From assembly GCA_902495305.1 (NCBI GenBank), contig CABUWG010000025.1, positions 1 to 29,321 on the forward strand: DNA of 29,321 nt, read 5' to 3'. The notes beneath the pieces were generated by a model. The model had not been told where the DNA came from. It saw only the letters and a program-made list of their open reading frames with translations, and did not search any database. Positions 6,262 through 28,125 of this stretch are shown piece by piece. The stretch comes from an uncultured Pseudomonadota bacterium (GTDB lineage Bacteria > Pseudomonadota > Alphaproteobacteria > RF32 > CAG-239). A program made the position numbers and the translations under genes. Position 1 is the first letter of the stretch; the number at the start of each line of letters is the position of its first letter.

Positions 6262-6313
6262 AAAATAAAAAATATGTGATGACAGTTTATGGCATAACAT
6301 TGTAATTTTATAT

Positions 6314-6342: not shown

Positions 6343-6348
6343 ACAAAA

Positions 6349-6370: not shown

Positions 6371-6385
6371 AATAAGGACTTTTTG

Positions 6386-9850: not shown

Positions 9851-9857
9851 GAAAAAC

Positions 9858-12800: not shown

Positions 12801-15800
12801 ATTACGAATTCAATTATTTTAGGTAACCGCTACTTCAGAACTGCAGAACATTCGGCTCAACAAACGCACAGCACTTTGAAAAGGTATGAGGATGATTTCA
12901 AAATAGGGAAAATAAATGTTTTGAATTGTTCTACCACAATGGAAATGGGTGTCGATATTGGTGGTATCACTATATCATCTATGAATAACGTACCACCGCA
13001 TCCGGCAAATTATTTGCAAAGAGCCGGACGTGCAGGACGTAGAAGTGAAACAAAGGCCATAAGTTTTACTTTGTGCAAAGATAACTCGCATGATCAATAT
13101 GTTTTTGCGCATCCTAAATGGGCATTTAGCACAAAAATTGCCGCACCTTATGTAGATAAATACAGTTTTATTGTTTTACAACGGCATATAAACTCTCTCT
13201 TGTTAGCATATTATTTTGACAGCATAAAAGGTCAGATAACTGATGCTACTAAGCTGAATATGGAATGGTTTATGCTTCCGGCTGAAAACAGCAGGTTAAT
13301 AAAATTCAAACAGTTCTGTAAGGATGCAATAAGGGTAAATGACCGTATTAGAAAAGCAATCTCTTCGATTATTGAAAATACACACTACGAAGATATAAAC
13401 CTAGACGTTTTTGTAACACAATTGGATGAATTAATTGATAACCTACAAAAGCGGTGGTACGCAGAGTATGATGCAATTCAAGAGCAGAAAGAAAGGGAAA
13501 AAGACCGCAAGATCAGTTTGGCCGCTATTAAAAAAACTGAAGAACGCTTACTTAAGGAATACATTCTCAAAGAGTTAATTGAATACGGCTTATTACCAAG
13601 ATACGGATTTCCAACTAACATCGTCACTTTTGACACGAATAATAGATTTAATTTAGATAAGAAAGTTTCGCAAACAAGAGAAGATAATCTATTTAAGCGA
13701 AGAGAACTTCCATCAAGAGATATTTGTACTGCACTAAGAGAGTATGCGCCTGGATGTGATGTTGTTATTGATGGTTTGGTTTATAAATCCGCCGGTATAA
13801 CACTAAATTGGCACATTCCTGCCTCTGATTCAGAAGTAAAAGAAATCCAATCAATGCGCTATATATGGAGATGCCACAAATGCGGTGCAAGTGGTACTTC
13901 AACAAGTCTTTGTGATGTAAAATGTGATGTTTGCGGATCTGAAATTGATACGAGAGATATGCAGAAGTATATTCAGCCGGCAGGATTTTCTGTTGATTTT
14001 AATGCGGCTGTAAATAACAACGTATCGGTTCAACGTTATATAAATATCTGTGAACCTTTAGTGACGGCTCATAATACTCTCAATTCCTATTTAGGATTAC
14101 CTTACGTAAAATATAAAAATGATAAAGAAGGTAGTGTAATCCACTATTCAAACGGCGGCGGTGAAGGATATATTTTGTGCCTCGAATGCGGTAGAATGGT
14201 TGCAAACAACAAGAAAAACCGGGAAGAATTCAAAAAAAGACATTACCGTTTGCGTAGTGGCGTATACCCCAATAGTCAAACAGGAAATACTTATAAAGTT
14301 GAATGCCAACATTCGCCTTATTCAATTATAGAAAATATTAATCTCGGCGTAGAAATTAAAACAGACCTTTTGGAGCTAATTCTATCTGATTTAGATGGCA
14401 ACGTCATTGATGACAGGACGTTGGCATATTCACTTGCGGTGGCCATACGTAGCGGTATTGCTAAATACATGAATGTTGAAACAGAAGAAATCGGATGTAT
14501 CGCTAAACAAATCCGGGTTAATGGAACAAATAAAAAAGGGTTTGCGATAGAGTTATTTGATAAAAATGCTTCCGGATATTGCTCTTCAAATGATATTATA
14601 AAAAATTTGAATATCATATTTAAGTATGCCCAAAATATTCTAAAATGTGATTGCGCACAATCTTGCAATAAATGTATTTTACAGAATGACACAAAATACA
14701 ACTACAGATATTTGGATAGAAAACTTGCGCTGGAGTTCTTAACAGATGAGTGGATTGCTAAAAATACTTTGCCGCAGGATATGAAAATCTTCGGAGATGG
14801 CACTCTTGTTGCATCTGCAAGTATTGAAAGTTTGATTGAGGATACTCCAAATTTACAAAAGTTATACTTAATTATCCCGGAAAATATGGAAAATGAAGAT
14901 TTTTCAAACTCTCCAATTTACAGGCTTGTCAACAGATATAATGCATTAAACACTCAGATAATACTTTGCGTGAATGAAAAAACACTGGGAGATGATGTAA
15001 AGAAAACCATTTCTTTGCTTTCCAATTTAAGCAATGTCTCTGTGAAAGCGATACCAGAAAAGCTAAATGATAAAATAATGGCAATTGTTTGGGATGGTTT
15101 CAAGTATTATTCATATGCATCCTTTGATGAAAATGTAAGACAATTAAACCAGTATTGGGGAAGTAATATAAACACATCAATATTATCAGGCTATATTGAT
15201 ATCAACGGCCTAAAATTTAATGATGTTAAATTAGAGACTGTTGAAAATATAAGTTACGATAAAATGTTCAATATTTCGTCAGAGGTTAACGGCCCAGGAT
15301 ATGGGTTCGGTAATAGATTGTTATCCATTTTGGCATCAAGTTTGGATAAAGGAATAAGTTCACCAATAGTAAAAATTGAATATAAGGATAGATATCTAAA
15401 AAATCCTTTGGCCTCAGGTTTATTTTACAGTTTTATAAAAGAACTTAAAGTTAGGTACGAAAAATTATGGAATTGTGCATCTATAACTTTGGAAACAGCC
15501 GAAACTACAGAAACCAACAAACAATATCCAACAATGTTTTATCATGACTGGGATGATGTGGATGCTAGAAATGAGGTATTAACTGCATTGTTTGATAAAA
15601 TTGGATTGAAATTTCAATTAAAAGAGAAAAACAAAAAATATCTCGAGCATAACAGAATAATGACAATTGAACTGGAAAATGGCGAAAAAATTAATTTAAT
15701 ACTAGATCAAGGCTTTTCTTACTGGAGATGTCTTGCATATTGTTACGCTGAAAACATCTTTCCGTTTGATGCAGACATTGATGAACAGGTGGCAAAAATC

Positions 15801-15869
15801 GGACAATGGTTACCGAATGTATCCGGTGATACTTATCCAACCAGAATATTTTACACTAAATCGAAATAG
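9858..15869 (+). CDS. druE: DEAH-box SF2 helicase with DUF1998 (MrfA-type Zn-binding) module and long C-terminal extension; DruE-like
   Basis: 2003-aa ORF. The helicase motifs are SSGTGSGKTE (I), LDEAHTY (II), SATIG (III) and QRAGRAGRR (VI). The Cys clusters are CCNPNCTC..CKCECG..CANCG, CHKCG..CDVKCDVCG, CLECG and CDCAQSCNKC, as expected for the DUF1998 zinc module. Its size and its pairing with the upstream giant ORF match DruE. Confidence 0.85.
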   Translation: MKTNSYSELLKILPVQSTEAIMSTLSILPLDLREFLRKKFSEEGDKFVADPVFEPMFSYKPSQQTFGELSGKLLPRSFVNALHGASEYRFDKSMYPYQHQLTSWETLLNTNNSLVVSSGTGSGKTECFMIPIISDLVQQVEKTNSVLEGVQALFIYPLNALIQNQRERFSEWTKPYKGNIRYCLYNGLLPQQTRESEQKETVEEVVDREQLWKSPSPLLITNTTMLEYMLIRANDKRIIDKSKGKLKYIVLDEAHTYIGSQAAELSLLLKRVMDAFEVKPEQVKFIATSATIGDNDASTQLRRFLSSISGVNEENVTVVFGKNEIEPLASSTAGKSIDEIEKIENPDEIIKELRNNKLACSLRSFFISSNTEHGVARTLTEICNNFNLTSDLALRWLDLLSVTPVNEKSFLPLRLHIFHKTFPGLWSCCNPNCTCKDNIPGWKFGKIYFKEQCKCECGAPVFRVKACANCGEPFLEAKINDSAKDGKKYLYPTMLQDIDEFSLDDDDNYINDVEAHTVWVENFEKDNDTACYLNIEDSSLSLANSNGIRLNVFEDYEDIHCCDAPEVDQIKSFIPLQGAPFVLSHVLPTLLNYAEIAKDSESKPHAGQKMICFTDSRQGTARLAVQLQQNSERNSFRSILLHVIAHIEAENNKNNNADQINTLKEAYKSTKMPQLLDMIKQLEGQKGSSFANENNVISDILKEFDDNDLKWIYNYYRDKDSIFDTNRGQGNLIEILFARELIRRPKKANNVETLGLLATAYDFSKITSVPASISKYFTCDDWKNYLKIVLDFFVRANGFVEYPENWDKWGAISKNNEPLDFDHWPKADKKKKNRNIVKLLFYALDMDQTNDYHIDIVNEIMKEAWLALTSATGILTPSANQIYRMKMDKIGLRRLQKIYVCPITNKALDVTFKGYSPYLSRKNRGESKEITLEKCKEYSFPIYDYSKESGKSYDECVLMRREWLENNDEINELKKLGIWNNITNSIILGNRYFRTAEHSAQQTHSTLKRYEDDFKIGKINVLNCSTTMEMGVDIGGITISSMNNVPPHPANYLQRAGRAGRRSETKAISFTLCKDNSHDQYVFAHPKWAFSTKIAAPYVDKYSFIVLQRHINSLLLAYYFDSIKGQITDATKLNMEWFMLPAENSRLIKFKQFCKDAIRVNDRIRKAISSIIENTHYEDINLDVFVTQLDELIDNLQKRWYAEYDAIQEQKEREKDRKISLAAIKKTEERLLKEYILKELIEYGLLPRYGFPTNIVTFDTNNRFNLDKKVSQTREDNLFKRRELPSRDICTALREYAPGCDVVIDGLVYKSAGITLNWHIPASDSEVKEIQSMRYIWRCHKCGASGTSTSLCDVKCDVCGSEIDTRDMQKYIQPAGFSVDFNAAVNNNVSVQRYINICEPLVTAHNTLNSYLGLPYVKYKNDKEGSVIHYSNGGGEGYILCLECGRMVANNKKNREEFKKRHYRLRSGVYPNSQTGNTYKVECQHSPYSIIENINLGVEIKTDLLELILSDLDGNVIDDRTLAYSLAVAIRSGIAKYMNVETEEIGCIAKQIRVNGTNKKGFAIELFDKNASGYCSSNDIIKNLNIIFKYAQNILKCDCAQSCNKCILQNDTKYNYRYLDRKLALEFLTDEWIAKNTLPQDMKIFGDGTLVASASIESLIEDTPNLQKLYLIIPENMENEDFSNSPIYRLVNRYNALNTQIILCVNEKTLGDDVKKTISLLSNLSNVSVKAIPEKLNDKIMAIVWDGFKYYSYASFDENVRQLNQYWGSNINTSILSGYIDINGLKFNDVKLETVENISYDKMFNISSEVNGPGYGFGNRLLSILASSLDKGISSPIVKIEYKDRYLKNPLASGLFYSFIKELKVRYEKLWNCASITLETAETTETNKQYPTMFYHDWDDVDARNEVLTALFDKIGLKFQLKEKNKKYLEHNRIMTIELENGEKINLILDQGFSYWRCLAYCYAENIFPFDADIDEQVAKIGQWLPNVSGDTYPTRIFYTKSK

Positions 15870-16078
15870 ATACTGTAAAAGTTATGGTATATCAGATAGT
15901 TATATTAGAGGTTCGCGACAAAAGAGTGGGTGTCCACGCTGGGTGGAAAATTAGCCCACTAGGTAAAAATATGGTTTGTAAAAATTGAGAAAGCCCTAGT
16001 GTTTTCAGCGTTATATCGCTATAATTCATCTAAATGAAAACGAGGCTGTATCAAAGTAGGGATTTTCCCTAGATGTCG

Positions 16079-16132
16079 CCGACCACTAAAAAAGGGTGCA
16101 CGAAGTGTGCCTTTTTTTGTGGCTTCGGGAAG
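16079..16132 (+). repeat. Copy 1 of a ~52-nt imperfect palindromic element
   Basis: CCGACCAC-T-AAAAAAGGGTGCAC-GAA-GTGTGCCTTTTTTT-GTGG-CT-TCGG. It folds into one long hairpin with two G-U pairs and a GAA loop, and carries a T-run. A near-identical copy lies 176 nt downstream. Confidence 0.8.
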
Positions 16133-16254
16133 CTGATGAGAAACCACGAGAAAGTGGGTTCGACTACCAGCGAAAGGCGGATGAAAAGACGCCGGTGAGC
16201 GAAGCGAATGAGCGCCTGTGCAACTCAAGCGGAGCGCAGAGTAATCCCGCTGCC

Positions 16255-16308
16255 CCGACCACTAAAAAAGGGTGCACGAAGTGTGCCCTTTTTTGTGGCT
16301 TCGGGAGC
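16255..16308 (+). repeat. Copy 2 of the ~52-nt imperfect palindromic element
   Basis: CCGACCACTAAAAAAGGGTGCACGAAGTGTGCCCTTTTTTGTGGCTTCGGGAGC. It differs from copy 1 by one T->C change in the 3' arm of the stem and by a missing A near the 3' end. Confidence 0.8.
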
Positions 16309-16546
16309 CGTCTCCGGCGGGTGAGGCTTCAGTTTTTGCTCACTGCTTCAGAAGCCGCGTTGCCGTGATGGTGTATGTGAGAGATAGGACTTCGAAAAAT
16401 GGGCGAAAAACGTCAGTGTGCCGCGAAGAGTACGACCAGAGGCGCAGTGACAGCATACAGTTTAATTTATGCCGTAAAAATCCTGCATTTACATAATCTT
16501 TGTTCTGTTCGTTGCAGAAAGCAATTCAGCAGCCGGTTAATTTTTA

Positions 16547-17203
16547 TTGCTTGTTTTTTTCATCCGGTATATCTTATTTTTATCTTTATTCAGAAAGGGC
16601 AGGATTTTGCAGGGGTATAATTTAAGCCGCAACAAGAGTTTAAGGCTTCCGAAGATTGTAGAAAACGAAGCCGGCGTTCTTAATTCCACAGATGATTTGT
16701 TTGCAACACGTCAGGCTTCCGCTTTGGCCGCTGACAGGAAATTTCCGAAAAAAAACGAGGACGGGGAGGAAAATGGCCATGACGCCGAGTTGGAACGGGT
16801 TTTGAAACTGCCTGAAACCGCGAGCGAGCTGGTGGTCATAACCAAGGCAAAAAAACTCGGGGCTTATACGATTGCGATTACGGCAAAATCGCCGGCAAAG
16901 TTCCGCGGCGTGTTTGTTAACCGGATGCAAAATTTTTGCCTCGACGCCGTACAAAATATGCTGAATGCCAATTTTATCCGCGCGGAAGACGAGGAAAGCA
17001 AAAAACTGCGGGAGAAGTTTCAGTCTGATGCGATTATCTGCTTGAAAATGCTGGCATATATTGCCATGGTGGCAGAGAATGCCGGTTGTATTTTGAAAAG
17101 ACAATATAAACAGATTGCATTGCAGGCCGGCGAGACGATTAATCTGGCTCTGGCCTGGAAAAAGAGCGATGATGAAAAATGGAGGAGCAAAAAAGAGATT
17201 TGA
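16547..17203 (+). CDS. avd: DGR accessory variability determinant (Avd-like four-helix-bundle protein); true start uncertain
   Basis: The C-terminal ~130 aa (ELVVITKAKKLGAYTIAITAKSPAKFRGVFVNRMQNFCLDAVQNMLNANF...CLKMLAYIAMVAENAGCILKRQYKQIALQAGETINLALAWKKSDDEK) fit the Avd / 23S-rRNA-IVS four-helix-bundle pattern. The gene sits directly upstream of the TR and RT. The track ORF begins at a TTG. A TATAAT at 16616-16621 lies inside it, and there is no in-frame ATG before the conserved part. Confidence 0.75.
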   Translation: MLVFFIRYILFLSLFRKGRILQGYNLSRNKSLRLPKIVENEAGVLNSTDDLFATRQASALAADRKFPKKNEDGEENGHDAELERVLKLPETASELVVITKAKKLGAYTIAITAKSPAKFRGVFVNRMQNFCLDAVQNMLNANFIRAEDEESKKLREKFQSDAIICLKMLAYIAMVAENAGCILKRQYKQIALQAGETINLALAWKKSDDEKWRSKKEI

Positions 17204-17246
17204 AACCGAAAGGTTTTAAATGAGGGAAAGCTTGTAATTGCCTTAT

Positions 17247-17356
17247 TTGGTCGGCGTCCGCTAATAATAACGGGAATGTTCGCACCGTGAATAATGACGG
17301 AGATAAGAACTATAATAATCCCCAAAAACGAAAGGCCGCCGTTCGGCCCGATTTGC
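17247..17356 (+). repeat. DGR template repeat (TR)
   Basis: A 110-nt match to 18888-18997 at a constant offset of 1641. I counted 15 mismatches by hand, and all are at TR adenines. Read in the VR frame, the TR encodes Asn-rich AAY codons (NNNGNVRTVNNDGDKNYNNPQKRKAAVRPD). Confidence 0.9.
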
Positions 17357-17421
17357 TTTTGAAGGGAAACATTAAAATTGCGTCCGGCAAAGCCGCAAGT
17401 TTCCGAAAAACAAGCCTGTTT

Positions 17422-17443
17422 ACGGTTTTTATGCAAAAACCGT
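17422..17443 (+). other. Perfect 9-bp hairpin in the TR-RT spacer region
   Basis: ACGGTTTTT-ATGC-AAAAACCGT, located in the part of a DGR RNA that normally carries the structured spacer (Sp) element. Confidence 0.4.
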
Positions 17444-17550
17444 CCGTGCTGAAAGCAAAGGAAGTTTTCTCTTTTCCGGCCGCTGCGGGAAAATGTTCCA
17501 TGCGGAGGAAGAAACAAAAACAGCAAATGTTTTATGAAATACCACATACA

Positions 17551-17578
17551 TTGACGCAGTTTTGTTTTAATGTATTAT
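17551..17578 (+). promoter_or_regulatory. Possible internal sigma70-type promoter upstream of the RT gene
   Basis: TTGACG (17551-17556), a 16-nt spacer, then TATTAT (17573-17578). GGAGA lies upstream of the RT ATG at 17616. Confidence 0.3.
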
Positions 17579-17615
17579 CGGGTATTTCTTTTTTTATCCG
17601 GAGATATGACAGAGC

Positions 17616-18683
17616 ATGAACCTGAACAAGATATTTTCATTTGAAAATCTGATGGAAGCCCACAAACTGTGCCGGAGAAGCAAACAGCACAAACGCGGCG
17701 CCATCATGTTTGAGATTGAACTCGGACGTAACATTGCCAAACTGGCAGATGATTTGGCAAAGAAGAAATACAAACTCGGAAAATACAGGCAATTTACCAT
17801 TTTTGATCCCAAGAAACGCCTGATTGAGGCTTTGCCGTATAAAGACAGGGTTGTTCTGATGTGTTTTTGCAAATATGCGCTTGAGCCGCGTCTGGATTGC
17901 CGGCTGATTTTTGACAATGCAGCGTCCAGAAAAGGCAAAGGGCCGGAATTTGCCATTGAACGCCTCAGCGGTTTTGTCCGCAGGCTTTGCTGTCAGAAGC
18001 CGGAAGAAGACATTTACTTTCTGAAATGCGACATTGCAAAATATTTTCAGAACATCAATCACAAGATATTGTTGGAAAAACTGCGGCGGTGCGGTTTTTC
18101 TGACGATGAAATGTGGCTTATGGAACAGGTTATCCGTTCGCACGGCGAAACCGGCGTTCCGCTCGGAAACCAGACAAGCCAGTGGTTTGCCCTGCTCTAT
18201 CTGGACGAGATTGACCGACTGGCAAAAGAACGCCTGCGCGCCCCGTTTTATATCCGCTATATGGATGATTTTGTCCTGTTAAGCAAAGACAAGGCTTTTT
18301 TGCAGCGCTGCCGAAATGAAATCGGTCTGGCCTGCCGCGAAAATCTGAAATTGCAGCTGAACGCCAAAACGCAAATCGGAAAGCTGAAAGACGGGCTGGA
18401 TTTTCTCGGATATAATTTTAAGCTCACGGTTACCGGCAAGCTTCTTAAAAGCCTGCGCGCTTCTGCCCGCCGGCGGCAACGGCATTATATTAAGATGATT
18501 GCCCGTTATTATTTGCAGGATGTTCTTGACGATGAATACCTGAATGTCCGTTTTAATGCCTTTAAGGCGCATATGAAAGGTACATCTGACTGGAAATTTG
18601 TACGTGACCGGTTAAACAGCCTGAAAAAGAAGAAGCGGCTTATGAAAAAAGCCAAAGATAAAAAATCCTTGCCCGCTTGCTGA
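17616..18683 (+). CDS. DGR reverse transcriptase
   Basis: 355-aa ORF. It has the catalytic YMDD box (YIRYMDDFVLL) and the DGR-type motif LGNQTSQ (the [ILV]GxxxSQ signature). It is flanked by Avd and the TR upstream and by the VR-bearing gene downstream. Confidence 0.95.
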   Translation: MNLNKIFSFENLMEAHKLCRRSKQHKRGAIMFEIELGRNIAKLADDLAKKKYKLGKYRQFTIFDPKKRLIEALPYKDRVVLMCFCKYALEPRLDCRLIFDNAASRKGKGPEFAIERLSGFVRRLCCQKPEEDIYFLKCDIAKYFQNINHKILLEKLRRCGFSDDEMWLMEQVIRSHGETGVPLGNQTSQWFALLYLDEIDRLAKERLRAPFYIRYMDDFVLLSKDKAFLQRCRNEIGLACRENLKLQLNAKTQIGKLKDGLDFLGYNFKLTVTGKLLKSLRASARRRQRHYIKMIARYYLQDVLDDEYLNVRFNAFKAHMKGTSDWKFVRDRLNSLKKKKRLMKKAKDKKSLPAC

Positions 18684-18723
18684 AAGTGTAGTATTATTAG
18701 TGGTAACTAATGGAGGAACTCTA

Positions 18724-20697
18724 ATGAATACAACATTATTGACAGAAGATCAAATCTGGGGAAATCAGGCTCTGGATGTTATGAAGAAGTATGGAACCAG
18801 AACGGCATTGACCGATTTGGCCATCGTATTGGGCGGTTTAATGGGGCGCTCGACCACAACCTCCGAGGGTGAACGTTCCGGTTATCATTGGTCGGCGTCC
18901 GCTGATGGTAGCGGGGATGTTCGCACCGTGAATCTTGACGGAGATAAGTACTCTGGTAATCCCCAAGGACGAGAGGCCGCCGTTCGGCCCGCTTTGCCTC
19001 CATCCGAGACATCTAAAATCCGTCCGAACGCAGTGAGGACGCTGAGATTGCCCGAAGGGCAATCGCTCGAAATTTGCGAATTCGGGGCCTATCCCCAAGA
19101 CATTGTTTCGCAGAAAATTTCGCAAAATCTGGAAAAATCTTACCAAAAAAGAAATCTTAAAACAACAGGAAAGTCTTATACTTTCGATGATGCCGGCCTG
19201 ACAGATTACAGTTCTGCTTTTAAGCCTAAAACTTATCAGGAATATGAGGATTCGTCTTCCGGTAAAAGATATGTCCGTGTTGAGGGCAAACCTGCCGACG
19301 AGGATTCGATTCTGTCTGACGGAATACGCGTTCAGAAAGGCGAAGCCTATTGGCTTGAGGTCAAGCCGATTGAATGGCTGAAAGATCCGTCCGGCGTCTG
19401 GGTGGCGAAAAAAGCCCTTTTTTCCGGCGTGCAATTTGATTCCGACAGCGATTATGACGGCAATTTTGCCCAAACCGACATGAAGCGGTATCTGGACCGC
19501 TATTTCTCAAAAGAAATGCAAGCATCCCGCGATTATTCCGTAAGCCGCAGCCGCAATGTCGACGTTTCCGAAGAAAAAAGCTTTACGCCCAAACCGCCCT
19601 CGGCCAGACAGAAAAAATACGGCATTCAGGTTGTGGACGAACCGATGACGGTTAAAGACCAGATTGACTTTTATGTGCAGAACGGCATGTCCTTCATGCT
19701 GCACGGACCATCCGGCGTCGGAAAGACCGCGAGGGTGGAAGCCATTGATCCGGATTTGACTGCCGTGCCGTTGTGGAACGGCGTCTTGCCCGAAGATGTG
19801 GTCGGCAAGGTGCGTTATCCGGACGGAAAAACCGGCTTGCCCGATGAAAACAAGTCCGGCGGAGAATGGATTGCACCGGACTGGTATGTGGAGTTGTGCA
19901 AAAAATGCGAAGCCGAACCGGACAAAAACCATGTTTTGTTCATTGACGAGGTTACCAATGCCCGTCCGACGACGCAAAGTCTGATTTTTCATATAACCCT
20001 GAAAAAATCCATCAGCTCCAGCAAGGGCAAGCTGCCGGACAACGCCGTTGTCGTACTGGCCGGAAACAGCAAAGAAGAATCCGGCGCGGCGTATAATATG
20101 CCGGAGCCTTTATTCCGACGGATGTGCGGCCATATTTATCTGGAAGCGAATGTGCCGGAATGGCTGGAATGGGCCAGCGAAAAAAGCCGTAAGCATCCCG
20201 AAGATCCGGAACGTCTGAATATTCATCCGCTGGTGTCTTCTTTTGTCGGGACATACGGGCATCAGGTTTTCTACTCTTCTTATGACGAGGAAAATCCGCA
20301 GCAATGGGCAATGGATCCGCGCGGCTGGGAACAGGTTTCGGACATTATTTATGACAACAAAGGCATTATCCGGAGAGAACTGCTGGAAAGCAAAATGGGA
20401 AAAGAACTGGCGGCCAATCTGCTGGCTTATGCCAAAAATCCGCCGCTTTCGCTCGAAGAAGTGATTAACGGCGAATATTCCGAGCATGACATTCCGTCCG
20501 GCAATGATGCCCGTTTGGCGCTGACACTGAGCCTTCGGCACGTGGATGACCGGCGGGTCGGGAAAGTCAGGGATTTTATCCGAGAAAATCTCGGACGGGA
20601 AAATGAAGCCATTTTTGATTCCTTTTGGATTGGCAAAGACGATGAAAGGGCTTTGCAGATTGCCCGTCAGAAACAACTCAGAAATGCAGGGAGGTAA
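18724..20697 (+). CDS. DGR target protein: N-terminal hypervariable ligand-binding-type domain fused to AAA+ (AAA_5/MoxR-like) ATPase
   Basis: The track ORF starts at GTG 18700. ATG 18724, with GGAGGA at 18712-18717, is the likely start (657 aa). The VR encodes residues ~56-91 (WSASADGSGDVRTVNLDGDKYSGNPQGREAAVRPAL). Walker A is LHGPSGVGKT, Walker B is VLFIDEV, sensor 1 is VVVLAGN and the Arg-finger region is PLFRR. Confidence 0.9.
   Translation: MNTTLLTEDQIWGNQALDVMKKYGTRTALTDLAIVLGGLMGRSTTTSEGERSGYHWSASADGSGDVRTVNLDGDKYSGNPQGREAAVRPALPPSETSKIRPNAVRTLRLPEGQSLEICEFGAYPQDIVSQKISQNLEKSYQKRNLKTTGKSYTFDDAGLTDYSSAFKPKTYQEYEDSSSGKRYVRVEGKPADEDSILSDGIRVQKGEAYWLEVKPIEWLKDPSGVWVAKKALFSGVQFDSDSDYDGNFAQTDMKRYLDRYFSKEMQASRDYSVSRSRNVDVSEEKSFTPKPPSARQKKYGIQVVDEPMTVKDQIDFYVQNGMSFMLHGPSGVGKTARVEAIDPDLTAVPLWNGVLPEDVVGKVRYPDGKTGLPDENKSGGEWIAPDWYVELCKKCEAEPDKNHVLFIDEVTNARPTTQSLIFHITLKKSISSSKGKLPDNAVVVLAGNSKEESGAAYNMPEPLFRRMCGHIYLEANVPEWLEWASEKSRKHPEDPERLNIHPLVSSFVGTYGHQVFYSSYDEENPQQWAMDPRGWEQVSDIIYDNKGIIRRELLESKMGKELAANLLAYAKNPPLSLEEVINGEYSEHDIPSGNDARLALTLSLRHVDDRRVGKVRDFIRENLGRENEAIFDSFWIGKDDERALQIARQKQLRNAGR
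18888..18997 (+). repeat. DGR variable repeat (VR)
   Basis: It is the counterpart of the TR at 17247-17356. The substitutions fall only opposite TR adenines (A->G, C or T), mostly at first and second positions of AAY codons. The 3' end shares the GC-rich segment GGCCGCCGTTCGGCCCG. Confidence 0.9.
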
Positions 20698-20699
20698 GC

Positions 20700-21083
20700 A
20701 TGAATAACAAGAAAAAAATGCTGTTTGAGCAGGTATTGGACAATAATCCCCTGCATCCGGTCATTTTGGCCGGCTGTGAAGATCTCTCCCTGCCCTCCTG
20801 CGTCTTTATGCCGGCGGATATTGCCGAGCGGGAGCTGTTTATTCCGTCTGACTGGAGCAAAATGCTTGATTTTGAGGCGCAAAACGGCAAGGCTTATCTT
20901 TTGATTGAGGGACTGGACAGGCTGGAGCCGGCGCAGCAAAACAAATTTTGCATGCTTTTGAAAAACCGGCGGGCCGGAAACTACAAACTGCCCGACAATG
21001 TCAGGATTGTTATTCCGGTTGTCGACAAATCGGGGCTCTCCGGCGACATCCTGTCTCTTTCTCTGCTTTGGGGCGTTGAATAA
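20700..21083 (+). CDS. Small (127-aa) protein resembling a Walker-A-less AAA+ core fragment
   Basis: GGGAGG lies upstream, and the ATG is 2 nt after the preceding stop. The segment AYLLIEGLDRLEPAQQNKFCMLLKNRRAGNYKLPDNVRIVIPV resembles the Walker B to sensor 1 stretch of AAA_5 proteins. No GxxGxGK[ST] P-loop is present. Confidence 0.6.
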   Translation: MNNKKKMLFEQVLDNNPLHPVILAGCEDLSLPSCVFMPADIAERELFIPSDWSKMLDFEAQNGKAYLLIEGLDRLEPAQQNKFCMLLKNRRAGNYKLPDNVRIVIPVVDKSGLSGDILSLSLLWGVE

Positions 21084-22612
21084 TGCCGGCAGACAATAAT
21101 GACATTGATTATATCAGGGAACGGGTTCTCCGGAAATTTCCGCTGCTCGGCGTGACGATGTCTGCCCTGAACACCGTGGCTGATGACAATATTGGCACGG
21201 CGGCGACTGACGGGCATACCGTTTATTATTCTCCAAAGTTTTTTGCCCCGCTTTCCGATGACGAAAAAACTTTTATTTATGCGCATGAGGTGATGCATGT
21301 GGCTTTTAACCATATTCTGCGCAGCAAAGGCAAGAAGCAGCGTCTGTGGAATACGGCTACGGATGCCGTTATTAACCAGATTCTCCAAAACGAAGAACTG
21401 CCTATGGTTGACGGCGGCGTAGACATGGCGGAAGCCGTCAACAAATCTGCCGAAGAAATGTATGAAAAGCTCCTGAAAGAACAAGAGGAAAAGAAACAAG
21501 AAAACAAACAGCAAAAGCAAGGAAACGATCATTCCGAGCAACAGCCCGACAGCGGCCGGCAACAGCAAAATACGCCCCAGCCCCAGGAGAATAATCAGCA
21601 GGAGCAGGAAAACGCAGAAGGGGAAGAAAGCGAACAGGCCGGACATGACAATCATGAGATTTGGAAAGAAGCTGTTGAGCGGGAAGAAAAACAAAGACAG
21701 CAGCAAGAAGACAGCCGGAAACAAAAAGAGAATTCTCCGTCGCCCAAGCAAGAGAAATCGGGACAAAACCTTTTGGACAAGCTGAAAGACTTGTTTAAAA
21801 AGCAGAATAAGCCCGCAAACCAAAACGGGGCTGAAAATAAAGAAACCCGCCAAGGGAGCCCTGACGGCGCCGACAGCCCCCGTTCCAAAGGGAATGAGAG
21901 CGTTTATGAAAAGCGGTTTGCCGAAGATAACCGGCAGGAGCGCAAAAGACAAGCCGAACAGATTCGCAAGGCTTTGCAACAGCACAAAAATGAAGTTCTT
22001 AAGGCGCAATCCGAAGAATATTCCTTCGGTAACGTCGGCGAGGCCAAGGCGGTTACCGACTGGAAGAAGCTTTTAAAGAAGACTATCGAAAAGGAAGAAG
22101 ACCGCTGGTCTTACCGCCGTTCCGGCGCCGACAACGACTATATGGCCCGCGTGGAAGAACTGGAAGAAGAAAACCGCTCGGAAACGGAAGTCATGCTGGA
22201 CGTCAGCGGTTCAGTCGACGAAGACATGCTGAAAGAATTTTTACGGCAGCTGAAGCCTATTTTAAAAACCTCAAAACTGAAAGTCGGGTGTTTTGACCAT
22301 CGGATTTTTGGTTTTAAGGAGATAAAAAACAGCCGCGACATTGACAATTTCAGGGTGCCGGGCGGCGGAGGGACGAATATTGATCAGGCCGTACGGGCTT
22401 TTTCCAAGAAAAAAGACGTCAACAAGATTGTCTTTACGGACGGGTATTCCGATGATATGCCGCGGCAGGATCTGAAAAATACAAATGTCATCTGGCTTAT
22501 TTATGACAACAAGAATTTTCATCCGGTTTGCGGAAAAGTGATTTATGTCGACCGCTCCAAACTCGGGCAGGATTATATGAAAAATGTCTATTTTGCCAGA
22601 GGCGGCAGATAA
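21083..22612 (+). CDS. DUF2201-type protein: N-terminal HExxH putative metallopeptidase domain, long E/K/Q-rich linker, C-terminal vWA-like domain
   Basis: 509-aa ORF. The TAATG start/stop overlaps the upstream gene. The N-terminal region reads TDGHTVYYSPKFF...YAHEVMHVAFNHILR...NTATDAVINQ, with an HExxH motif. The C-terminal region reads VMLDVSGSV (a DxSxS MIDAS-like motif) ...PGGGGTNIDQA...IVFTDGYSD. Confidence 0.85.
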   Translation: MPADNNDIDYIRERVLRKFPLLGVTMSALNTVADDNIGTAATDGHTVYYSPKFFAPLSDDEKTFIYAHEVMHVAFNHILRSKGKKQRLWNTATDAVINQILQNEELPMVDGGVDMAEAVNKSAEEMYEKLLKEQEEKKQENKQQKQGNDHSEQQPDSGRQQQNTPQPQENNQQEQENAEGEESEQAGHDNHEIWKEAVEREEKQRQQQEDSRKQKENSPSPKQEKSGQNLLDKLKDLFKKQNKPANQNGAENKETRQGSPDGADSPRSKGNESVYEKRFAEDNRQERKRQAEQIRKALQQHKNEVLKAQSEEYSFGNVGEAKAVTDWKKLLKKTIEKEEDRWSYRRSGADNDYMARVEELEEENRSETEVMLDVSGSVDEDMLKEFLRQLKPILKTSKLKVGCFDHRIFGFKEIKNSRDIDNFRVPGGGGTNIDQAVRAFSKKKDVNKIVFTDGYSDDMPRQDLKNTNVIWLIYDNKNFHPVCGKVIYVDRSKLGQDYMKNVYFARGGR

Positions 22613-22658
22613 ATTTTTGCCGGTATGAATATTATCTGAAAAAAATTGAAAAAAATTC

Positions 22659-22687
22659 TTGTAAATAAAAAAGAAAAAATGTATATT
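22659..22687 (+). promoter_or_regulatory. Possible promoter for tRNA-Arg
   Basis: TTGTAA (22659-22664), a 17-nt spacer, then TATATT (22682-22687), about 60 nt upstream of the tRNA. Confidence 0.3.
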
Positions 22688-22749
22688 CGCTTTTGTAATT
22701 GCGGTAGGAGTGTTTTTGATGAGCTTTTGCCCTGTAAATTCTATCTTTT

Positions 22750-22826
22750 GCGCCCTTAGCTCAGCTGGATAGAGCAACAGCCTTCTAAGCTGTGGGTCAG
22801 ACGTTCGAATCGTCTAGGGCGCGCCA
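22750..22826 (+). tRNA. tRNA-Arg (anticodon UCU), CCA encoded
   Basis: I folded the cloverleaf by hand. The acceptor stem is GCGCCCT/AGGGCGC, the D arm is GCTC-AGCTGGATA-GAGC, the anticodon stem is ACAGC/GCTGT with loop CT-TCT-AA, and the T arm is AGACG-TTCGAAT-CGTCT. The discriminator is G, followed by CCA. Confidence 0.9.
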
Positions 22827-22863
22827 TATAACAGAACCCTGCAAAAAGCAGGGTTTTGTTATA
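22827..22863 (+). terminator. Long hairpin immediately after the tRNA (terminator-like)
   Basis: TATAACAGAACCCTGC-AAAAA-GCAGGGTTTTGTTATA. The stem is 16 bp with one G-U pair and has a T-rich 3' arm. Confidence 0.55.
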
Positions 22864-22981
22864 TCTGCAAGTCTTGCGCTACTAAGGAAAGCTATGTGGC
22901 CGGCATATTCTGCCGTGAGCGCCCTGCCCCAGAAATCGCGTTGCTCAGGTGGAAACTCTAAAATAAAAAGGCAATAAAAAA

Positions 22982-23007
22982 AGAGGCAAGGATGATCCCT
23001 TACCTCT
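22982..23007 (-). terminator. Hairpin terminator downstream of the 249-aa minus-strand gene
   Basis: AGAGGCAAGG-ATGATC-CCTTACCTCT. The stem is 10 bp with one mismatch, is flanked by A- and T-runs, and lies 16 nt beyond the stop at 23023. Confidence 0.5.
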
Positions 23008-23022
23008 TAAAAATTGTTGAAC

Positions 23023-23772
23023 TTAAGCCGTGGCGGTCAGAATTTCTTTTTTGACTTTCAGCTTATTAAAAAATCCGTTTACGCCAATCCGCCGGTAAAA
23101 GTCTTTGTGGTCAATTTTGCTCCAGCGTTCTTTGAACAACACCGGATAGAGCCGCCATCTTTGCGGGGTTGCAAAATAGCAATACAGATCATTCGGATCT
23201 ATATTTTTATCCCAGTAAATCATTTGCCAGGCCCACTGGAAAACCTCTTGCGCGGTTGCCGCTTTCAAACAAGATGATGACAGCATATAGTTCCTGCGCG
23301 GTTCTCCGTATTTATCAAGATGTTCTGCCAGACCGCAGATTATCTTGACCATATGTTCCCTGATATTGGGAGATTTCAGGCAGGTTTTGGCCTGTTTGGT
23401 CAAGAACTTCCAGCATCCGTCAGTCATCAATCCCGGCTGATCCCATTTTGCAGAATATTTGTCATAGCTTTCAAGCAGCAGATTATCTCTTGTCGGTTCA
23501 TGCAGAACGGCACCGTTAGACAGGCGCTGCATGGCAATTTCCAACAAGGCTTCTCCGCTTACCCAATCCTGTTTCCAGAGGTATTCTCCAAAATCGGCAA
23601 TGAGCAGCATATAGTCGTCGCCAATTCGCCAACCGCGAATGTCCTGACCTCCTTCATGCAAGATTTTTGGCAAAATGACTTTGTGAACAATCTCTTTATG
23701 AGACATTGCCTCAATTTCATTTTGGGTCATTCCTGATAATTTCGCCACTCTTTTTACAAAATTTGTGTTCAT
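23023..23772 (-). CDS. Hypothetical 249-aa protein (Trp-rich, no recognised domain)
   Basis: It is a long ORF flanked by a terminator hairpin downstream and an AT-rich divergent intergenic region upstream. I recognised no motif. Confidence 0.65.
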   Translation of the reverse strand: MNTNFVKRVAKLSGMTQNEIEAMSHKEIVHKVILPKILHEGGQDIRGWRIGDDYMLLIADFGEYLWKQDWVSGEALLEIAMQRLSNGAVLHEPTRDNLLLESYDKYSAKWDQPGLMTDGCWKFLTKQAKTCLKSPNIREHMVKIICGLAEHLDKYGEPRRNYMLSSSCLKAATAQEVFQWAWQMIYWDKNIDPNDLYCYFATPQRWRLYPVLFKERWSKIDHKDFYRRIGVNGFFNKLKVKKEILTATA

Positions 23773-24006
23773 AATTTTTTGTTTTTGGGGTTAATAATAA
23801 AGATAATTCGTAATTTACTTTTTAAAACATATCATAAATCAGGTTATTTGGCAACCCTGTTTTTTGTTTATTTGTCCAACTTAACAAAAATGTCATATTC
23901 CGCCGGAAAATTCTTATTAACTCAACTTAAACTATTTTAAGATATATTGATTTTTAATAATTGATATTTTACTTATTATATAAGTGAATCATTTGGGGTT
24001 ATGCGC

Positions 24007-24441
24007 ATGAATAAGAAATTTGGCGGTTGCTGTATGGCAGTATCTTTGTTGTTTTCTGTGGCAGTACAGGCCGCGGAAGTTGACGACTGCATTAACAATT
24101 CAAACAGTTCCGACGAGGCTTACAGCCGGTGCTGGCTGGACGAAGCCAAGCGTTTGAATACGGAAATCAAAAACAAATATGAGCAATTGGCTTCTAACAA
24201 GCTTGCGGCAGAATGGAACAAGGGTAACGGCATGTTTAAGGGGAATCTGAAAGATATGTACGATTCCTGGGTGGCTTACCGCAACCGGTTTTGTTCTTTG
24301 TCCGGCGTAGCCGGCCATTACGAAACATCTGAAAGCAAAGCTTTTCATCAGTCTTTATGTCTGGTAAACCTCAGCAAAAAACATAATCAGGAATTAGACG
24401 GGCTGCTTTCGACTTTTGCTTCTCAAATGATTAAAGATTAA
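24007..24441 (+). CDS. Secreted DUF1311 / LprI-like (lysozyme-inhibitor family) protein
   Basis: The track start is 24001. ATG 24007 has better spacing from GGGG at 23995-23998. The signal peptide reads MNKKFGGCCMAVSLLFSVAVQA/AE. The Cys...Y..C...E...Y..L...W..YR..FC spacing (YDSWVAYRNRFC) is typical of DUF1311. Confidence 0.7.
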   Translation: MNKKFGGCCMAVSLLFSVAVQAAEVDDCINNSNSSDEAYSRCWLDEAKRLNTEIKNKYEQLASNKLAAEWNKGNGMFKGNLKDMYDSWVAYRNRFCSLSGVAGHYETSESKAFHQSLCLVNLSKKHNQELDGLLSTFASQMIKD

Positions 24442-24444
24442 AAT

Positions 24445-24469
24445 AAAAGCCTCTTTTCTGAGGCTTTTT
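24445..24469. terminator. Bidirectional rho-independent terminator between convergent genes
   Basis: AAAAGCCTC-TTTTCT-GAGGCTTTT. It lies between the DUF1311 stop at 24441 and the ABC transporter stop at 24472. Confidence 0.7.
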
Positions 24470-24471
24470 GT

Positions 24472-26247
24472 TTATCTCAACTGCGTCCGGTAAAGTGAGG
24501 CATAAATACTGCCTTCTTTTTGCATCAGTTCTTCGTGGCTGCCGACTTCTGCAATCTCACCATAATTAACGACCACAATTTTATCGGCGTTACGGACTGT
24601 AGACAGGCGGTGGGCAATGATAAACACTGTCCGGTCTTTCATCAAATTGTCAATGGCCTCCTGCACCACGGCTTCCGACTTGTTATCCAAAGCCGAGGTT
24701 GCCTCGTCCAAGATGACAATCGGCGCATTTTTGATGAAGGCACGCGCAATGGCAATACGTTGTTTTTGACCGCCGGAGAGCAAGACGCCGCGTTCGCCGA
24801 TTTCGGTATCGAGCCCTTTTTCCAATCCGGAAATAAACTCTTCCAGACAGGCGCTTTTTACGGCTTGTCTGATTTGCTCTTCCGACGCATTCTCATCTCC
24901 CAGCAGAATATTGTCGCGGATTGTGCCGGCAAACAGGAAATTGTCCTGAAAGACAATGGCGATTTTGTCACGCAACGAGATTAAATCCAAGTCGCGAACA
25001 TCTACACCGTCAATCTTTACTGCGCCGGATTTGACGTCATAAAATCGGGGCAGCAGGTTGACCATTGTGGTTTTTCCGCCGCCGGAATTGCCGACGAAAG
25101 CAATGGTCTGCCCTACTTTGACTTTCAGGCTGACATCTTTCAGAACCGGTTTGTCTTTTAAATATTCAAAGCAGACGTGGTCATAAAAGATTTCTTTTTT
25201 AACCTCGGTCAGAGGTTTGGCATCCGGTTTGTTATGAATTGCCGGTTGTTGTTCCAGCAGCCCGAACACCCGTTCCATTGCCATGAGCGCCATTTGGACG
25301 TTGTTGTAGTTGTTGCCGATAGATTTTATCGGATTATACAGCATAATCAATGCCGTAATGAAAGAAACAAAGTTTCCGGCCGTAATCTCATGATGGACAA
25401 TCAAATAACTGCCCAGCCAGATGACGCCGGCAATACCGAAGGAAATGACCAAATGCATCAGCGGCGACATCATGCCGGTCCGCTGGATCATCTTAATCCC
25501 CATTTTAAACACGGTTTGCAGCGTGTTGCGAAAGCGTTTGCCCTGATAGTCATAAAGATTGTACGACGTAATAATCCGGTTGCCGGCAAAGGTTTCGTTA
25601 TAATGTGTCATAACCGCGGAACCGGAAAAAATGGTCTTGTCCATAACGGATTTGATACGGCGGCGAACCGTTGTCAGCGGATATAACGCCCCTAAAAGCA
25701 CAACGACGGCGACAATTGCCAGCTGCCACGAATTGTAAAACAAGACGCAAATCAATGAAATTGACGAGAAAACGCGGGTGGTAAAAAGCTTCATATTCGA
25801 CAAGAGGCCGTTGCAAGCCAGATCAACGTCCTGATTGAAACGCATCTGAATATCTCCAGAGTTTGACCTATCAAAATAAGACGCTTCATAGGTCATCAGC
25901 TTGTCAAACAGGTCTATTTTGACATCATTGGCGATTTTGCGCCCGACCCAGGTGTTCAGATAAGTTGCGGTATAGTTGAGCAGGCTCTGCAAAGTGCTGA
26001 ACAAGATAATCAAAAGCGGAATATAAGATGTGGCCGCGGTGCTTTTCTCCACCATTACCACATCCATATACGGCTTGAGCGACCAGGCAATGACCGCATC
26101 CATCGAGCCAATCGGAATGGTAATCAACACTGCCAAAATCGCCCTAACCCAATACGGCTTCACATAAGGCAGCATTTTACGATAATTTTGAACAATATAC
26201 AAGTTGTTGATTTTATTTCTTATTTTTGCAAACATATTAACCTTCAT
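24472..26247 (-). CDS. ABC transporter, fused permease/ATP-binding protein (MsbA-like lipid/glycolipid exporter family)
   Basis: 591-aa ORF. It has an N-terminal six-helix ABC membrane domain, Walker A GNSGGGKTT, the signature LSGGQKQRIAIARA and Walker B IVILDEATSALD. Confidence 0.9.
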   Translation of the reverse strand: MKVNMFAKIRNKINNLYIVQNYRKMLPYVKPYWVRAILAVLITIPIGSMDAVIAWSLKPYMDVVMVEKSTAATSYIPLLIILFSTLQSLLNYTATYLNTWVGRKIANDVKIDLFDKLMTYEASYFDRSNSGDIQMRFNQDVDLACNGLLSNMKLFTTRVFSSISLICVLFYNSWQLAIVAVVVLLGALYPLTTVRRRIKSVMDKTIFSGSAVMTHYNETFAGNRIITSYNLYDYQGKRFRNTLQTVFKMGIKMIQRTGMMSPLMHLVISFGIAGVIWLGSYLIVHHEITAGNFVSFITALIMLYNPIKSIGNNYNNVQMALMAMERVFGLLEQQPAIHNKPDAKPLTEVKKEIFYDHVCFEYLKDKPVLKDVSLKVKVGQTIAFVGNSGGGKTTMVNLLPRFYDVKSGAVKIDGVDVRDLDLISLRDKIAIVFQDNFLFAGTIRDNILLGDENASEEQIRQAVKSACLEEFISGLEKGLDTEIGERGVLLSGGQKQRIAIARAFIKNAPIVILDEATSALDNKSEAVVQEAIDNLMKDRTVFIIAHRLSTVRNADKIVVVNYGEIAEVGSHEELMQKEGSIYASLYRTQLR

Positions 26248-26345
26248 TGCTTATTATGTGCGCATAATAGCAGACTCTGTCTTTTTTTGCAAGGCAGAGC
26301 AATGATAGTCCACATTAATAATGTGTCAGGAAAAGTTATTTCTCT

Positions 26346-26993: not shown

Positions 26994-26994
26994 A

Positions 26995-28050: not shown

Positions 28051-28125
28051 CAGTCCACCTTTTGTTTTTAAAAATACATAGAAAGAGCTATTGCCTTTTC
28101 TATGGTTTTCGTTAAAAATTTTACT

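Follow-up and report, generated by a model that had tools for sequence, protein, structure and literature searches.

The proteins targeted by diversity-generating retroelements (DGRs) are overwhelmingly surface or virion proteins with C-terminal variable repeats (VRs) (PMC8144416), and this near-universal placement of the VR has been explained by the need for non-coding cis elements (Roux et al., PMC8144416). N-terminal VRs are rare (3 of 372 DGRs; Wu et al. 2018, PMC5758913) and are known in the tentaclins of gut phages (PMC10743442). For DGR-linked systems that combine a MoxR ATPase with a von Willebrand factor A (vWA) protein, a role in sensing and response has been predicted (PMC7159879, PMC10907252), and DGR targets with Midasin-like AAA domains are mentioned for the Candidate Phyla Radiation (CPR) (PMC5758913; PMC10907252 citing Paul et al. 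2017). Such intracellular DGR "antigen sensors" are so far predictions, mainly from multicellular bacteria and CPR lineages. In the NorQ-NorD pair, the vWA domain inserts a finger into the pore of the hexameric ATPase, and the linker that joins NorD's N-terminal domain to its vWA domain is remodelled by ATP hydrolysis (PMC13036017). Here we describe a locus of an uncultured gut alphaproteobacterium (GTDB lineage RF32; CAG-239) in GenBank assembly GCA_902495305.1, contig CABUWG010000025.1, positions 1 to 29,321 (this whole stretch of 29,321 nt is called the window below). In it a DGR rewrites the N-terminal domain of a MoxR-class AAA+ ATPase, the first product of a three-gene operon that also encodes a protein of 127 amino acids (aa) and a predicted zincin metallopeptidase with a vWA domain. 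The overall picture, in which we place about even confidence, is that of a cytoplasmic three-protein machine of gut Alphaproteobacteria whose recognition domain is rewritten by the adjacent DGR and which likely senses proteins of mobile elements; the conflict or immune purpose is the least certain link in this picture.

An active DGR directed at the first gene of the operon

The DGR and the three-gene operon make up six elements, all on the + strand, in about 6 kb (within 16547-22612). They are given here together with the repeat features of the DGR:

16547..17203, + strand: Avd, the DGR accessory protein (phrog_3206 'Avd protein of DGR', 50.9 bits)
17247..17356, + strand: template repeat (TR), 110 nt, with 34 adenines and 10 AAY codons
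17334..17350, + strand: G+C-rich inverted repeat GGCCGCCGTTCGGCC at the 3' end of TR, counterpart of the element resembling an initiation of mutagenic homing (IMH) site in VR
17616..18683, + strand: DGR reverse transcriptase (RT), 355 aa (RVT_1, 63.6 bits; phrog_1423, 305.9 bits), with YMDD at 18258-18269 and LGNQTSQ at 18162-18182
18724..20697, + strand: DGR target, 657 aa, in which a disordered linker joins a variable domain, predicted to bind ligands, to a MoxR-class AAA+ ATPase
18888..18997, + strand: VR, residues 55-92 of the 657-aa target, a beta-hairpin and loop region
18975..18991, + strand: IMH-like G+C-rich element at the 3' end of VR, inside the coding sequence, encoding AAVRPA
20700..21083, + strand: 127-aa partner protein, starting 2 nt past the target stop, between the ATPase and DUF2201 genes
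21083..22612, + strand: zincin-vWA protein, 509 aa (DUF2201_N, 106.6 bits; DUF2201, 47.9 bits; phrog_1314, 230.6 bits)

From TR, the Avd/TR/RT cassette rewrites codons 55-92 of the first gene, and its copying errors are specific to adenines. TR and VR are mismatched at 15 of 110 positions, and all 15 mismatches fall on TR adenines, at codon position 1 or 2. Nineteen TR codons are mutable, three of them lysine codons (AAG, AAA and AAG), giving ~10^18 possible peptides. The RT carries, as LGNQTSQ, the [LIV]GxxxSQ motif that is specific to DGR reverse transcriptases. The initial annotation of this DNA had placed the only VR of the window in the 657-aa protein, and this is borne out: the conserved 5' and 3' repeat ends each occur exactly twice (0 expected by chance), and a scan for these ends found no second TR target within the window. 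The usual DGR arrangement, with VR at the C-terminus of the target and in a C-type lectin fold, is not the one seen here, as VR lies N-terminally, at residues 55-92 of 657. The exact 17-mer GGCCGCCGTTCGGCC occurs in the window only at 17334-17350 and 18975-18991 and was also found by a scan for terminator-like hairpins; by analogy with the Bordetella phage DGR model, it may serve as an IMH-like element. Across the target family, residues R88, P89 and L91 show little or no variation. The longest open reading frame (ORF) of Avd runs to 218 aa from a TTG, with the Avd-like part at residues 81-213 and an uncertain true start. It scores 17 bits against the NCBIfam equivalog NF033474, far under the cut-off of 80, and is best read from its sequence as a divergent Avd; the position of Avd upstream of TR is kept in 15 related loci.

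The DGR is active in nature, because within database clusters of at least 90% identity the per-site variability of VR exceeds that of the remaining protein 19-140-fold. Three such clusters (P0001, P0003 and P0017), with members from different samples (water deer, mouse and human) aligned over their full length, show 0.41-0.55 within-cluster differences per site in VR versus 0.003-0.029 elsewhere. The TRs of the window and of the two relatives L004 and L001 are near-identical, and the VRs of the same three differ at A sites. These data also bear on the idea that the DGR is a decaying relic, or that TR and VR resemble each other by chance and the operon is unrelated, which we find scarcely credible. 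Some relatives did lose the adjacent DGR and some assembled VRs are frameshifted (L004), but in the window RT, Avd and TR are intact, and the frameshifts are most simply assembly consensus artefacts. The idea is effectively refuted by mismatches that sit solely at adenines, by a layout that recurs in 16 further species-level loci and by the hypervariability of VR within near-identical clusters.

The VR of L004 (8160-8290) is frameshifted in its assembly. Many database entries in P0001, P0003 and P0017 are annotated with 549-562 aa, i.e., they are truncated N-terminally with the start placed after VR, and at least in L004 this annotation arises because the assembled VR is frameshifted. The frameshift is probably an artefact of the assembly consensus over a heterogeneous VR; a genuine off-switch, by stop codons arising where TR has its three mutable lysine codons, is possible too.

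A probable permuted relative of DUF6273 carries the variable repeat

The part of the target that contains VR is a domain of its own:

18724..19524, + strand: N-terminal domain, residues 1-267, a probable relative of DUF6273 by circular permutation, with a beta-rich insertion

The target begins at ATG 18724, with GGAGG seven bases upstream. In an AlphaFold2 model of the whole protein (37 homologues), residues 1-267 are predicted with a local distance difference test score (pLDDT) >90, the linker at 268-289 is disordered and the AAA+ module spans residues ~300-657; modelled alone, the N-terminal domain reaches pLDDT 94.3 and a predicted template modelling score (pTM) of 0.92. Foldseek found no significant neighbour of this domain and no C-type lectin structure in PDB and BFVD, and a Pfam scan of the isolated N-terminal half at E <= 10 returned zero matches, DUF6273 included. 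Of the 2,730 cluster representatives that an exhaustive profile search with the domain gathered, 844 matched at E <= 1e-30. Stand-alone proteins of 265-330 aa are numerous in the family, and others occur as tandem copies or fused to ankyrin or DUF4116 repeats. The family is without a Pfam model of its own, and the DUF6273 model stands in a permuted register relative to it.

Among relatives with tandem copies, the DUF6273 match spans the junction of the copies, at residues 214-375 in P0131 (818 aa; 26.3 bits, above the cut-off of 23.5) and at residues 500-626 in P0139 (1005 aa; 20.9 bits, below it). The homologue L040 matches DUF6273 above this cut-off, with 31.5 bits, its residues 24-137 aligning with profile positions 54-171. 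Because of the junction-spanning matches and the register of the L040 alignment, we take the N-terminal domain as a probable relative of DUF6273 by circular permutation. DUF6273 is reported to be C-type-lectin-like and diversified by DGRs in gut phages (PMC10743442, PMC11792537), and through this indirect link the N-terminal domain may be taken as lectin-like. On such a permuted scaffold with an N-terminal VR, the cis-acting homing elements must be encoded in-frame.

Mean pairwise identity is 49% in the scaffold of the N-terminal domain versus 74% in the ATPase. In none of the three operon proteins does the maximum of the Kyte-Doolittle hydropathy over 19-residue windows exceed 1.6, nor is any secretion or membrane segment hinted at, and all three are predicted to be soluble and cytoplasmic.

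The ATPase and its two partners

The catalytic and metal-binding motifs of the ATPase and of the 509-aa protein could be located as follows, all on the + strand:

19621..20694: MoxR/AAA_5-class AAA+ module, residues 300-657 (phrog_1297, 128 bits)
19705-19728: Walker A (GPSGVGKT)
19933-19950: Walker B (VLFIDE)
20065-20067: sensor-1 N (LAGN)
20116-20121: RR pair (PLFRR)
21119-21703: DUF2201_N metallopeptidase domain, with HEVMH at 21284-21298 (residues 68-72) and WNTATD at 21347-21364
22190-22549: DUF2201 vWA domain, with the metal ion-dependent adhesion site (MIDAS) DVSGS at 22199-22213 (residues 373-377)

We accept the ATPase as a member of the MoxR/CbbQ/NorQ class at the family level, because of the phrog_1297 match, the structural matches to CbbQ and NorQ, and homologues that pass the AAA_5 cut-off. 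The best Foldseek matches are CbbQ (6l1q, 4.8e-9) and NorQ (9qh4/9qh7, ~1e-8, including NorQ-NorD vWA complexes), at 12-16% identity, with dynein, McrB and sigma-54 activators ranked below them. The AAA_5 score of the window protein itself (19.2-20.7 bits) lies below the Pfam cut-off of 22, whereas Clostridia homologues exceed it (L057, 33.2 bits; L054, 26.7 bits; L040, 22.7 bits). The initial assignment to AAA_5/MoxR is thus upheld for the MoxR class, with the window protein's own AAA_5 match just short of the threshold. Conservation of the catalytic residues is close to complete: the Walker A lysine is kept in 77/77 relatives, the Walker B aspartate in 75/75 and glutamate in 73/75, and the sensor-1 asparagine in 75/75, and all catalytic motifs, the RR pair included, are kept in 71-77 of 73-77 related loci. 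The ATPase is accordingly well placed to be catalytically competent, as its sequence predicts.

The three genes are tightly joined, precisely as first described: the target and the 127-aa gene are separated by 2 nt (TAA-GC-ATG, 20695-20702), and the 127-aa and 509-aa genes overlap in TAATG (21081-21085). In 37 loci the 127-aa gene keeps its place between the genes for the ATPase and the DUF2201 protein. Its product has zero matches in Pfam, PHROG, NCBIfam and PADLOC, a homologue search with it retrieved only 7 close proteins, and its pattern consists of a hydrophobic strand, "LLVIxGLD", "EQxKFxxLLKDRR" and "KLPxxVQIvxPV". Aligned by hhalign to the Walker B-sensor 1 region of the ATPase, it falls into a homologous register with weak scores (E 0.004-0.015, probability 3-9%); BLASTP against the ATPase was not significant, and a profile search of PDB found no AAA protein. 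The small protein was originally called an AAA protein lacking Walker A; the gene and its position are right, and the AAA part is no more than suggestive. Possibly it is an inactive AAA-like alpha/beta core without a P-loop.

In the 509-aa protein both Pfam gathering cut-offs are exceeded (DUF2201_N, 23.2 bits; DUF2201, 26.4 bits), so that its description as a DUF2201 protein with HEVMH and DxSxS motifs holds. An E/Q/K-rich segment of ~215 residues, disordered-looking by its composition, separates the zincin and vWA domains. Because HExxH (45/45), the five fixed positions of WNxATD (W, N, A, T and D; 45/45) and DxSxS (44/44) are invariant in relatives, the peptidase as well as the metal-dependent adhesion site can be predicted to be functional.

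A resident chromosomal operon with a patchily distributed DGR

The 657-aa protein has more than 780 homologues, and a scan of one genome per species yielded 78 loci. Its closest relatives come from metagenome-assembled genomes (MAGs) of uncultured gut and rumen Alphaproteobacteria (L004, 95% protein identity; L001, 92%), and remoter ones, at 33-45% identity, from Clostridia MAGs, often with several paralogues per genome. The order ATPase/small protein/DUF2201 is kept in ~40 loci of gut MAGs. The Clostridia proteins (L035-L075, e.g., L053, L038, L040 and L058) have 693-916 aa, with the same ATPase and divergent N-terminal domains; up to five loci occur in one MAG, and most are without a DUF2201 neighbour or a DGR. 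They are a paralogous expansion of the same receptor-ATPase design.

A DGR lies near 17 loci, all of them alphaproteobacterial, with Avd-TR-RT directly upstream in 16 and ~8 kb away in L034. At these loci VR occupies residues ~53-92, and 71-100% of the TR/VR mismatches are at TR adenines. L034, from a MAG labelled Rickettsiales, has TR and RT at 8-1368 and the target at 8001-9953, with other genes between; since its TR and RT are ~8 kb upstream, the DGR need not adjoin its target in this family. L009, L079 and L080 have no DGR nearby, yet their VRs differ from a related TR mainly at adenines, which implies that a DGR either sits at another place in the genome or was lost recently. No DGR footprint was found in L083, L010, L012, L021-L024 and L029. 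When members are ordered by identity, those with and those without a DGR are intermingled, so that repeated gains or losses of the DGR must have occurred.

By composition the window divides into three blocks, with G+C of 0.34 (1-16078), 0.48 (16079-22612) and 0.41 (22613-29321). L004 and L001 are collinear with it from 16079 rightwards (16079-26314 or 16079-22864) at 87-89% nucleotide identity, and not leftwards, where they carry genes for CTP synthase and a SurA-like rotamase in place of the island encoding Druantia and restriction-modification (R-M) systems. L083 has the three-gene set without a DGR, between the same CTP synthase/SurA-like flank and the same downstream genes for a 249-aa protein and LprI, and in L079 the set lies among genes for pyrophosphatase, OmpA, HU, FabH, PlsX and L32. 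In G+C the cassette matches the housekeeping flanks, and it is the Druantia/R-M island, at 34%, that stands apart as foreign. The three-gene set is a resident chromosomal operon, because relatives share the housekeeping flanks and the cassette G+C equals that of these flanks, and the island is a strain-specific low-G+C insertion. We had considered the jump in G+C at ~16 kb as a sign of a foreign DGR cassette and rejected this, the cassette matching the housekeeping flanks of the relatives. The recognition domain, described at first as "acquired", is not an addition confined to this locus: L083 carries the same N-terminal domain at the same chromosomal site without a DGR.

Genes to the left and right of the cassette in the window are:

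759-2231: type I R-M methylase, low-G+C island
2218-4587: HsdR, low-G+C island
4572-5522: WYL-domain protein, low-G+C island
6383-9850: Druantia type III DruH
9858-15869: Druantia type III DruE
22750-22826: tRNA-Arg(TCT), 138 nt downstream of the DUF2201 gene (ARAGORN; Rfam, 66.7 bits)
23023-23772, - strand: 249-aa protein, with matches in no library
24001-24441, + strand: LprI-like protein (lysozyme inhibitor family)

The left block thus holds, within 1-15869, a type I R-M methylase with HsdR, a WYL protein and Druantia type III DruH/DruE (PADLOC 948, 314, 1944 bits), and the right block the tRNA gene, the 249-aa and LprI-like proteins, an ABC transporter and further genes. The genes for the 249-aa and LprI-like proteins are kept downstream of the three-gene set in L004 and L083. 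The tRNA-Arg gene might be a hotspot for integration. A direct repeat of 52 nt (16079-16130 and 16255-16306, 98% identical) lies at the right edge of the low-G+C island, each copy consisting of an A-tract, a GCAC-GAA-GTGC hairpin and a T-tract and resembling a bidirectional terminator. Its start coincides exactly with the start of the L004 homology, and the non-coding stretch 16079-16306 is 99-100% identical to L004, with the adjoining genes at ~87%. The repeat could be an island junction, an attachment remnant or a conserved regulatory RNA.

Defence genes flank a minority of the loci, counted raw and with no background rate. Flanking ORFs match type III R-M Res in four cases and SNF2/DrmD-type helicases in five; judged by ORF coordinates, these appear to belong to the related L006/L007/L014/L017 group. 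L081 is flanked by HsdR, PIF1-WYL and AAA_14/DUF4143, and AbiLi and AriA-like ATPases stand beside a few loci without a DGR. The initial annotation had argued for defence from the adjacent R-M system and Druantia, which are present in the window, but the argument fails as the island is strain-specific and L004 and L001 have housekeeping genes there. It had further expected homologues to lie beside defence genes and outside prophage structural modules; structural genes do not adjoin the cassette and IMG/VR has no real relative, and defence genes stand beside a minority of the loci, which tells partly against its inference.

Such a setting would suit a housekeeping MoxR-vWA chaperone in the manner of NorQD, CbbQO or RavA-ViaA, which matures or remodels an endogenous client and whose binding the DGR merely tunes; the system would then not serve immunity, and we regard this explanation as unlikely. 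Besides the stable chromosomal position, the housekeeping neighbours and the native G+C, it can draw on the many relatives without any DGR, on best structural matches that are cofactor-insertion or activase chaperones, and on the experimentally characterised MoxR-vWA pairs named in PMC7159879 and PMC13036017, which are all chaperones. However, ~10^18 possible variants and a 19-140-fold excess of VR variability are hard to square with a fixed endogenous client, the partner has an intact zincin peptidase where NorD, CbbO and ViaA have none, and no client gene is conserved beside the operon in the neighbourhoods inspected.

Phage homologues

Relatives of the ATPase (residues ~280-647 only) and of the DUF2201 protein, 22-37% identical, occur in N4-like, rV5-like and jumbo phages. 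Kosakonia phage Kc283 carries both genes among those for an exonuclease, a helicase and rIIA, i.e., in an early/replication region. The pair of MoxR and metallopeptidase-vWA proteins has been noted in jumbo phages, with a suggested role in virion assembly (Iyer et al. 2021, PMC7824862). The phage pair (N4 gp24-like ATPase and vWA protein) shares with the operon the families phrog_1297 and phrog_1314 and the zincin-linker-vWA architecture; it differs in that the phage ATPases are without the N-terminal variable domain and without a DGR, and the 127-aa middle gene was not seen in Kc283.

One could imagine that the module stems from phages or other mobile elements and serves counter-defence or competition between elements, with the bacterial or prophage-remnant copy of a phage host-takeover tool being retargeted by the DGR to proteins of the host or of rivals. 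Its strongest family matches are indeed phage families (phrog_1297, 128 bits; phrog_1314, 231 bits), N4-like, rV5-like and jumbo phages carry the pair in early/replication regions, gut phages are known to have DUF6273-type DGR targets whose VR is N-terminal (PMC10743442), and a tRNA-Arg gene lies 138 nt downstream. We nevertheless consider this origin improbable: integrase, structural and lysis genes are absent beside the cassette in the window and in L004/L001, contigs of IMG/VR have no close relative, identity to the phage proteins is just 22-37%, and synteny of the housekeeping flanks extends across relatives of 65-95% identity. IMG/VR was scanned both with the N-terminal domain and with the full-length alignment, neither of which found a close relative, and we rejected a prophage or phage cargo gene on these scans. 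In the supplements of Roux et al. 2021, the target family led only to an unrelated viral protein cluster (CobS/N4 gp24-like). The early view that the target is neither a phage tail fibre nor a surface lipoprotein agrees with its predicted solubility, with the lack of adjoining structural genes and with the IMG/VR result.

Proposed function

We propose the following mechanism, modelled on NorQ-NorD, CbbQ-CbbO and the MoxR-vWA conflict systems. The ATPase would form a hexamer displaying six variable domains, and these lectin-like domains would select a protein ligand. The vWA domain of the partner would dock on the ATPase ring, and ATP hydrolysis would pull the partner's linker, thereby positioning or activating the zincin. 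The zincin may then cleave the captured protein or a downstream substrate, the captured protein being remodelled or cleaved; this peptidase would be the only recognisable effector. Because a hypermutating cytoplasmic receptor makes sense mainly if its ligand changes fast, the likeliest ligands would be fast-evolving intracellular proteins of phages or other mobile elements, and the system could be both sensor and effector in a biological conflict, in line with the sensor models put forward for DGR-linked MoxR-vWA systems (PMC7159879, PMC10907252). Consistent with this reading, the N-terminal scaffold evolves faster than the ATPase, and defence genes stand beside some loci, including the window.

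Several observations weigh against it. PADLOC-DB 2.0.0 (2023) has 0 families for the target, the 127-aa and the DUF2201 proteins, and no toxin, nuclease, TIR or pore-forming effector is found in the system. A DGR is nearby in just 17 of the 78 species-level loci, and the core machine works without hypermutation, because several relatives show no DGR footprint. The stable site, housekeeping neighbours and native G+C of the closest relatives are atypical for mobile defence systems, and the closest homologues of the ATPase-zincin/vWA pair lie in early/replication regions of lytic phages. The hexamer, docking by the vWA domain and control over the peptidase are inferred from distant homologues (12-16% identity), and defence is a function predicted from sequence. 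What stands of the defence or conflict module inferred at the outset is an active DGR on a soluble MoxR-class target with a DUF2201 partner; the argument from a defence island does not stand, and a PADLOC match was not obtained.

A sensor of the abortive-infection kind, in which ligand binding unleashes the metallopeptidase on host proteins and growth stops, is quite unlikely in our judgement. A model of this kind has been proposed for the VMAP ternary systems (PMC7159879, PMC10907252), and here too the peptidase is the only enzymatic effector, with invariant motifs. On the other hand, general library scans found no VMAP, caspase/trypsin, TIR or other death-associated domain, and nothing hints at self-targeting; sequence alone cannot separate this model from the sensing of mobile-element proteins that we prefer.

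The preferred reading can be sharpened into an anticipatory, protein-level immune machine, for which the DGR would write up to ~10^18 specificities and the motor with its vWA-zincin would destroy or disable invader proteins in the cytoplasm. In this strong form we hold it to be rather unlikely. If true, it would in effect amount to a split protease of the FtsH-like kind that is programmable and evolves its choice of substrates within a population, and with VR unusually placed at the 5' end of the operon, stops created at those three lysine codons of TR that can mutate could silence all of its genes. Should the defence reading be wrong, the locus would still be a rare case of hypermutation of the client-binding domain of a chaperone.

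Comparison with known systems

The nearest described systems are the VMAP ternary systems (Kaur et al. 2020, PMC7159879; Doré et al. 2024, PMC10907252), and the statement in the initial annotation that DGR-diversified or MoxR-vWA conflict systems had been proposed computationally is correct. In both cases a DGR diversifies a C-type-lectin-type domain in a cytoplasmic system of MoxR ATPase and vWA protein, often with a peptidase, and the function (invader sensing and response) is predicted computationally only. In the VMAP systems, either the vWA component or a separate target carries the variable FGS/CLec domain at its C-terminus, and the MoxR ATPase is separate and invariant; in the window, VR is at the N-terminus of the ATPase itself, in a DUF6273-type domain, and nothing follows the C-terminal vWA domain. 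The VMAP systems further comprise a VMAP protein with trypsin/caspase domains and EAD adaptors, and their hosts are mostly multicellular cyanobacteria, actinobacteria and Chromatiales, whereas here the vWA protein has an N-terminal zincin (DUF2201_N) and the hosts are uncultured gut Alphaproteobacteria. No VMAP-annotated gene was evident in the operon in general library scans, among which no search was aimed at VMAP-C, and the 127-aa protein is much shorter than the tripartite multidomain VMAP proteins (PMC7159879).

In the CPR/DPANN targets, which join a CLec or unclassified VR domain to an AAA/Midasin-like ATPase, the DGR target itself contains an AAA+/Midasin-like NTPase, as it does here, which suggests that ligand binding is coupled to the ATPase. 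They differ in RT clade and host lineage, and a DUF2201 partner is not mentioned in the parts of those reports that describe them. The tentaclins and other DUF6273-type targets of gut phages (PMC10743442, PMC11792537) likewise have VR on a beta-hairpin and flanking loops of a DUF6273-related domain. Tentaclins are adhesins or proteins of the virion, and Ig domains follow their lectin domain, whereas the window target, predicted to be cytoplasmic, has the domain in permuted form, with a beta-rich insertion and an ATPase behind it. With NorQ-NorD and CbbQ-CbbO (PDB 9qh4-9qhg, 6l1q; PMC13036017), the operon shares a partner built as N-terminal domain, linker and C-terminal vWA domain with a MIDAS; those pairs have no variable domain and no peptidase, serve a defined client (cNOR, Rubisco) and are 12-16% identical.

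A literature search did not find the combination of a permuted DUF6273 domain with an N-terminal VR, its direct fusion to MoxR, a DUF2201 zincin-vWA protein and a small protein in gut Alphaproteobacteria. The combination appears to be new; DGR-coupled MoxR-vWA systems and DGR-targeted AAA proteins had already been predicted computationally. Its natural activity and compactness make ligand recognition and transduction by cytoplasmic DGR targets experimentally approachable, and it opens a way to the function of the ATPase/DUF2201 pair, which many N4-like, rV5-like and jumbo phages carry. Compared with the antigen sensors predicted so far, the locus presents a compact alternative, i.e., a hypervariable receptor placed directly on a motor ATPase, with one peptidase-vWA partner as the sole candidate effector.

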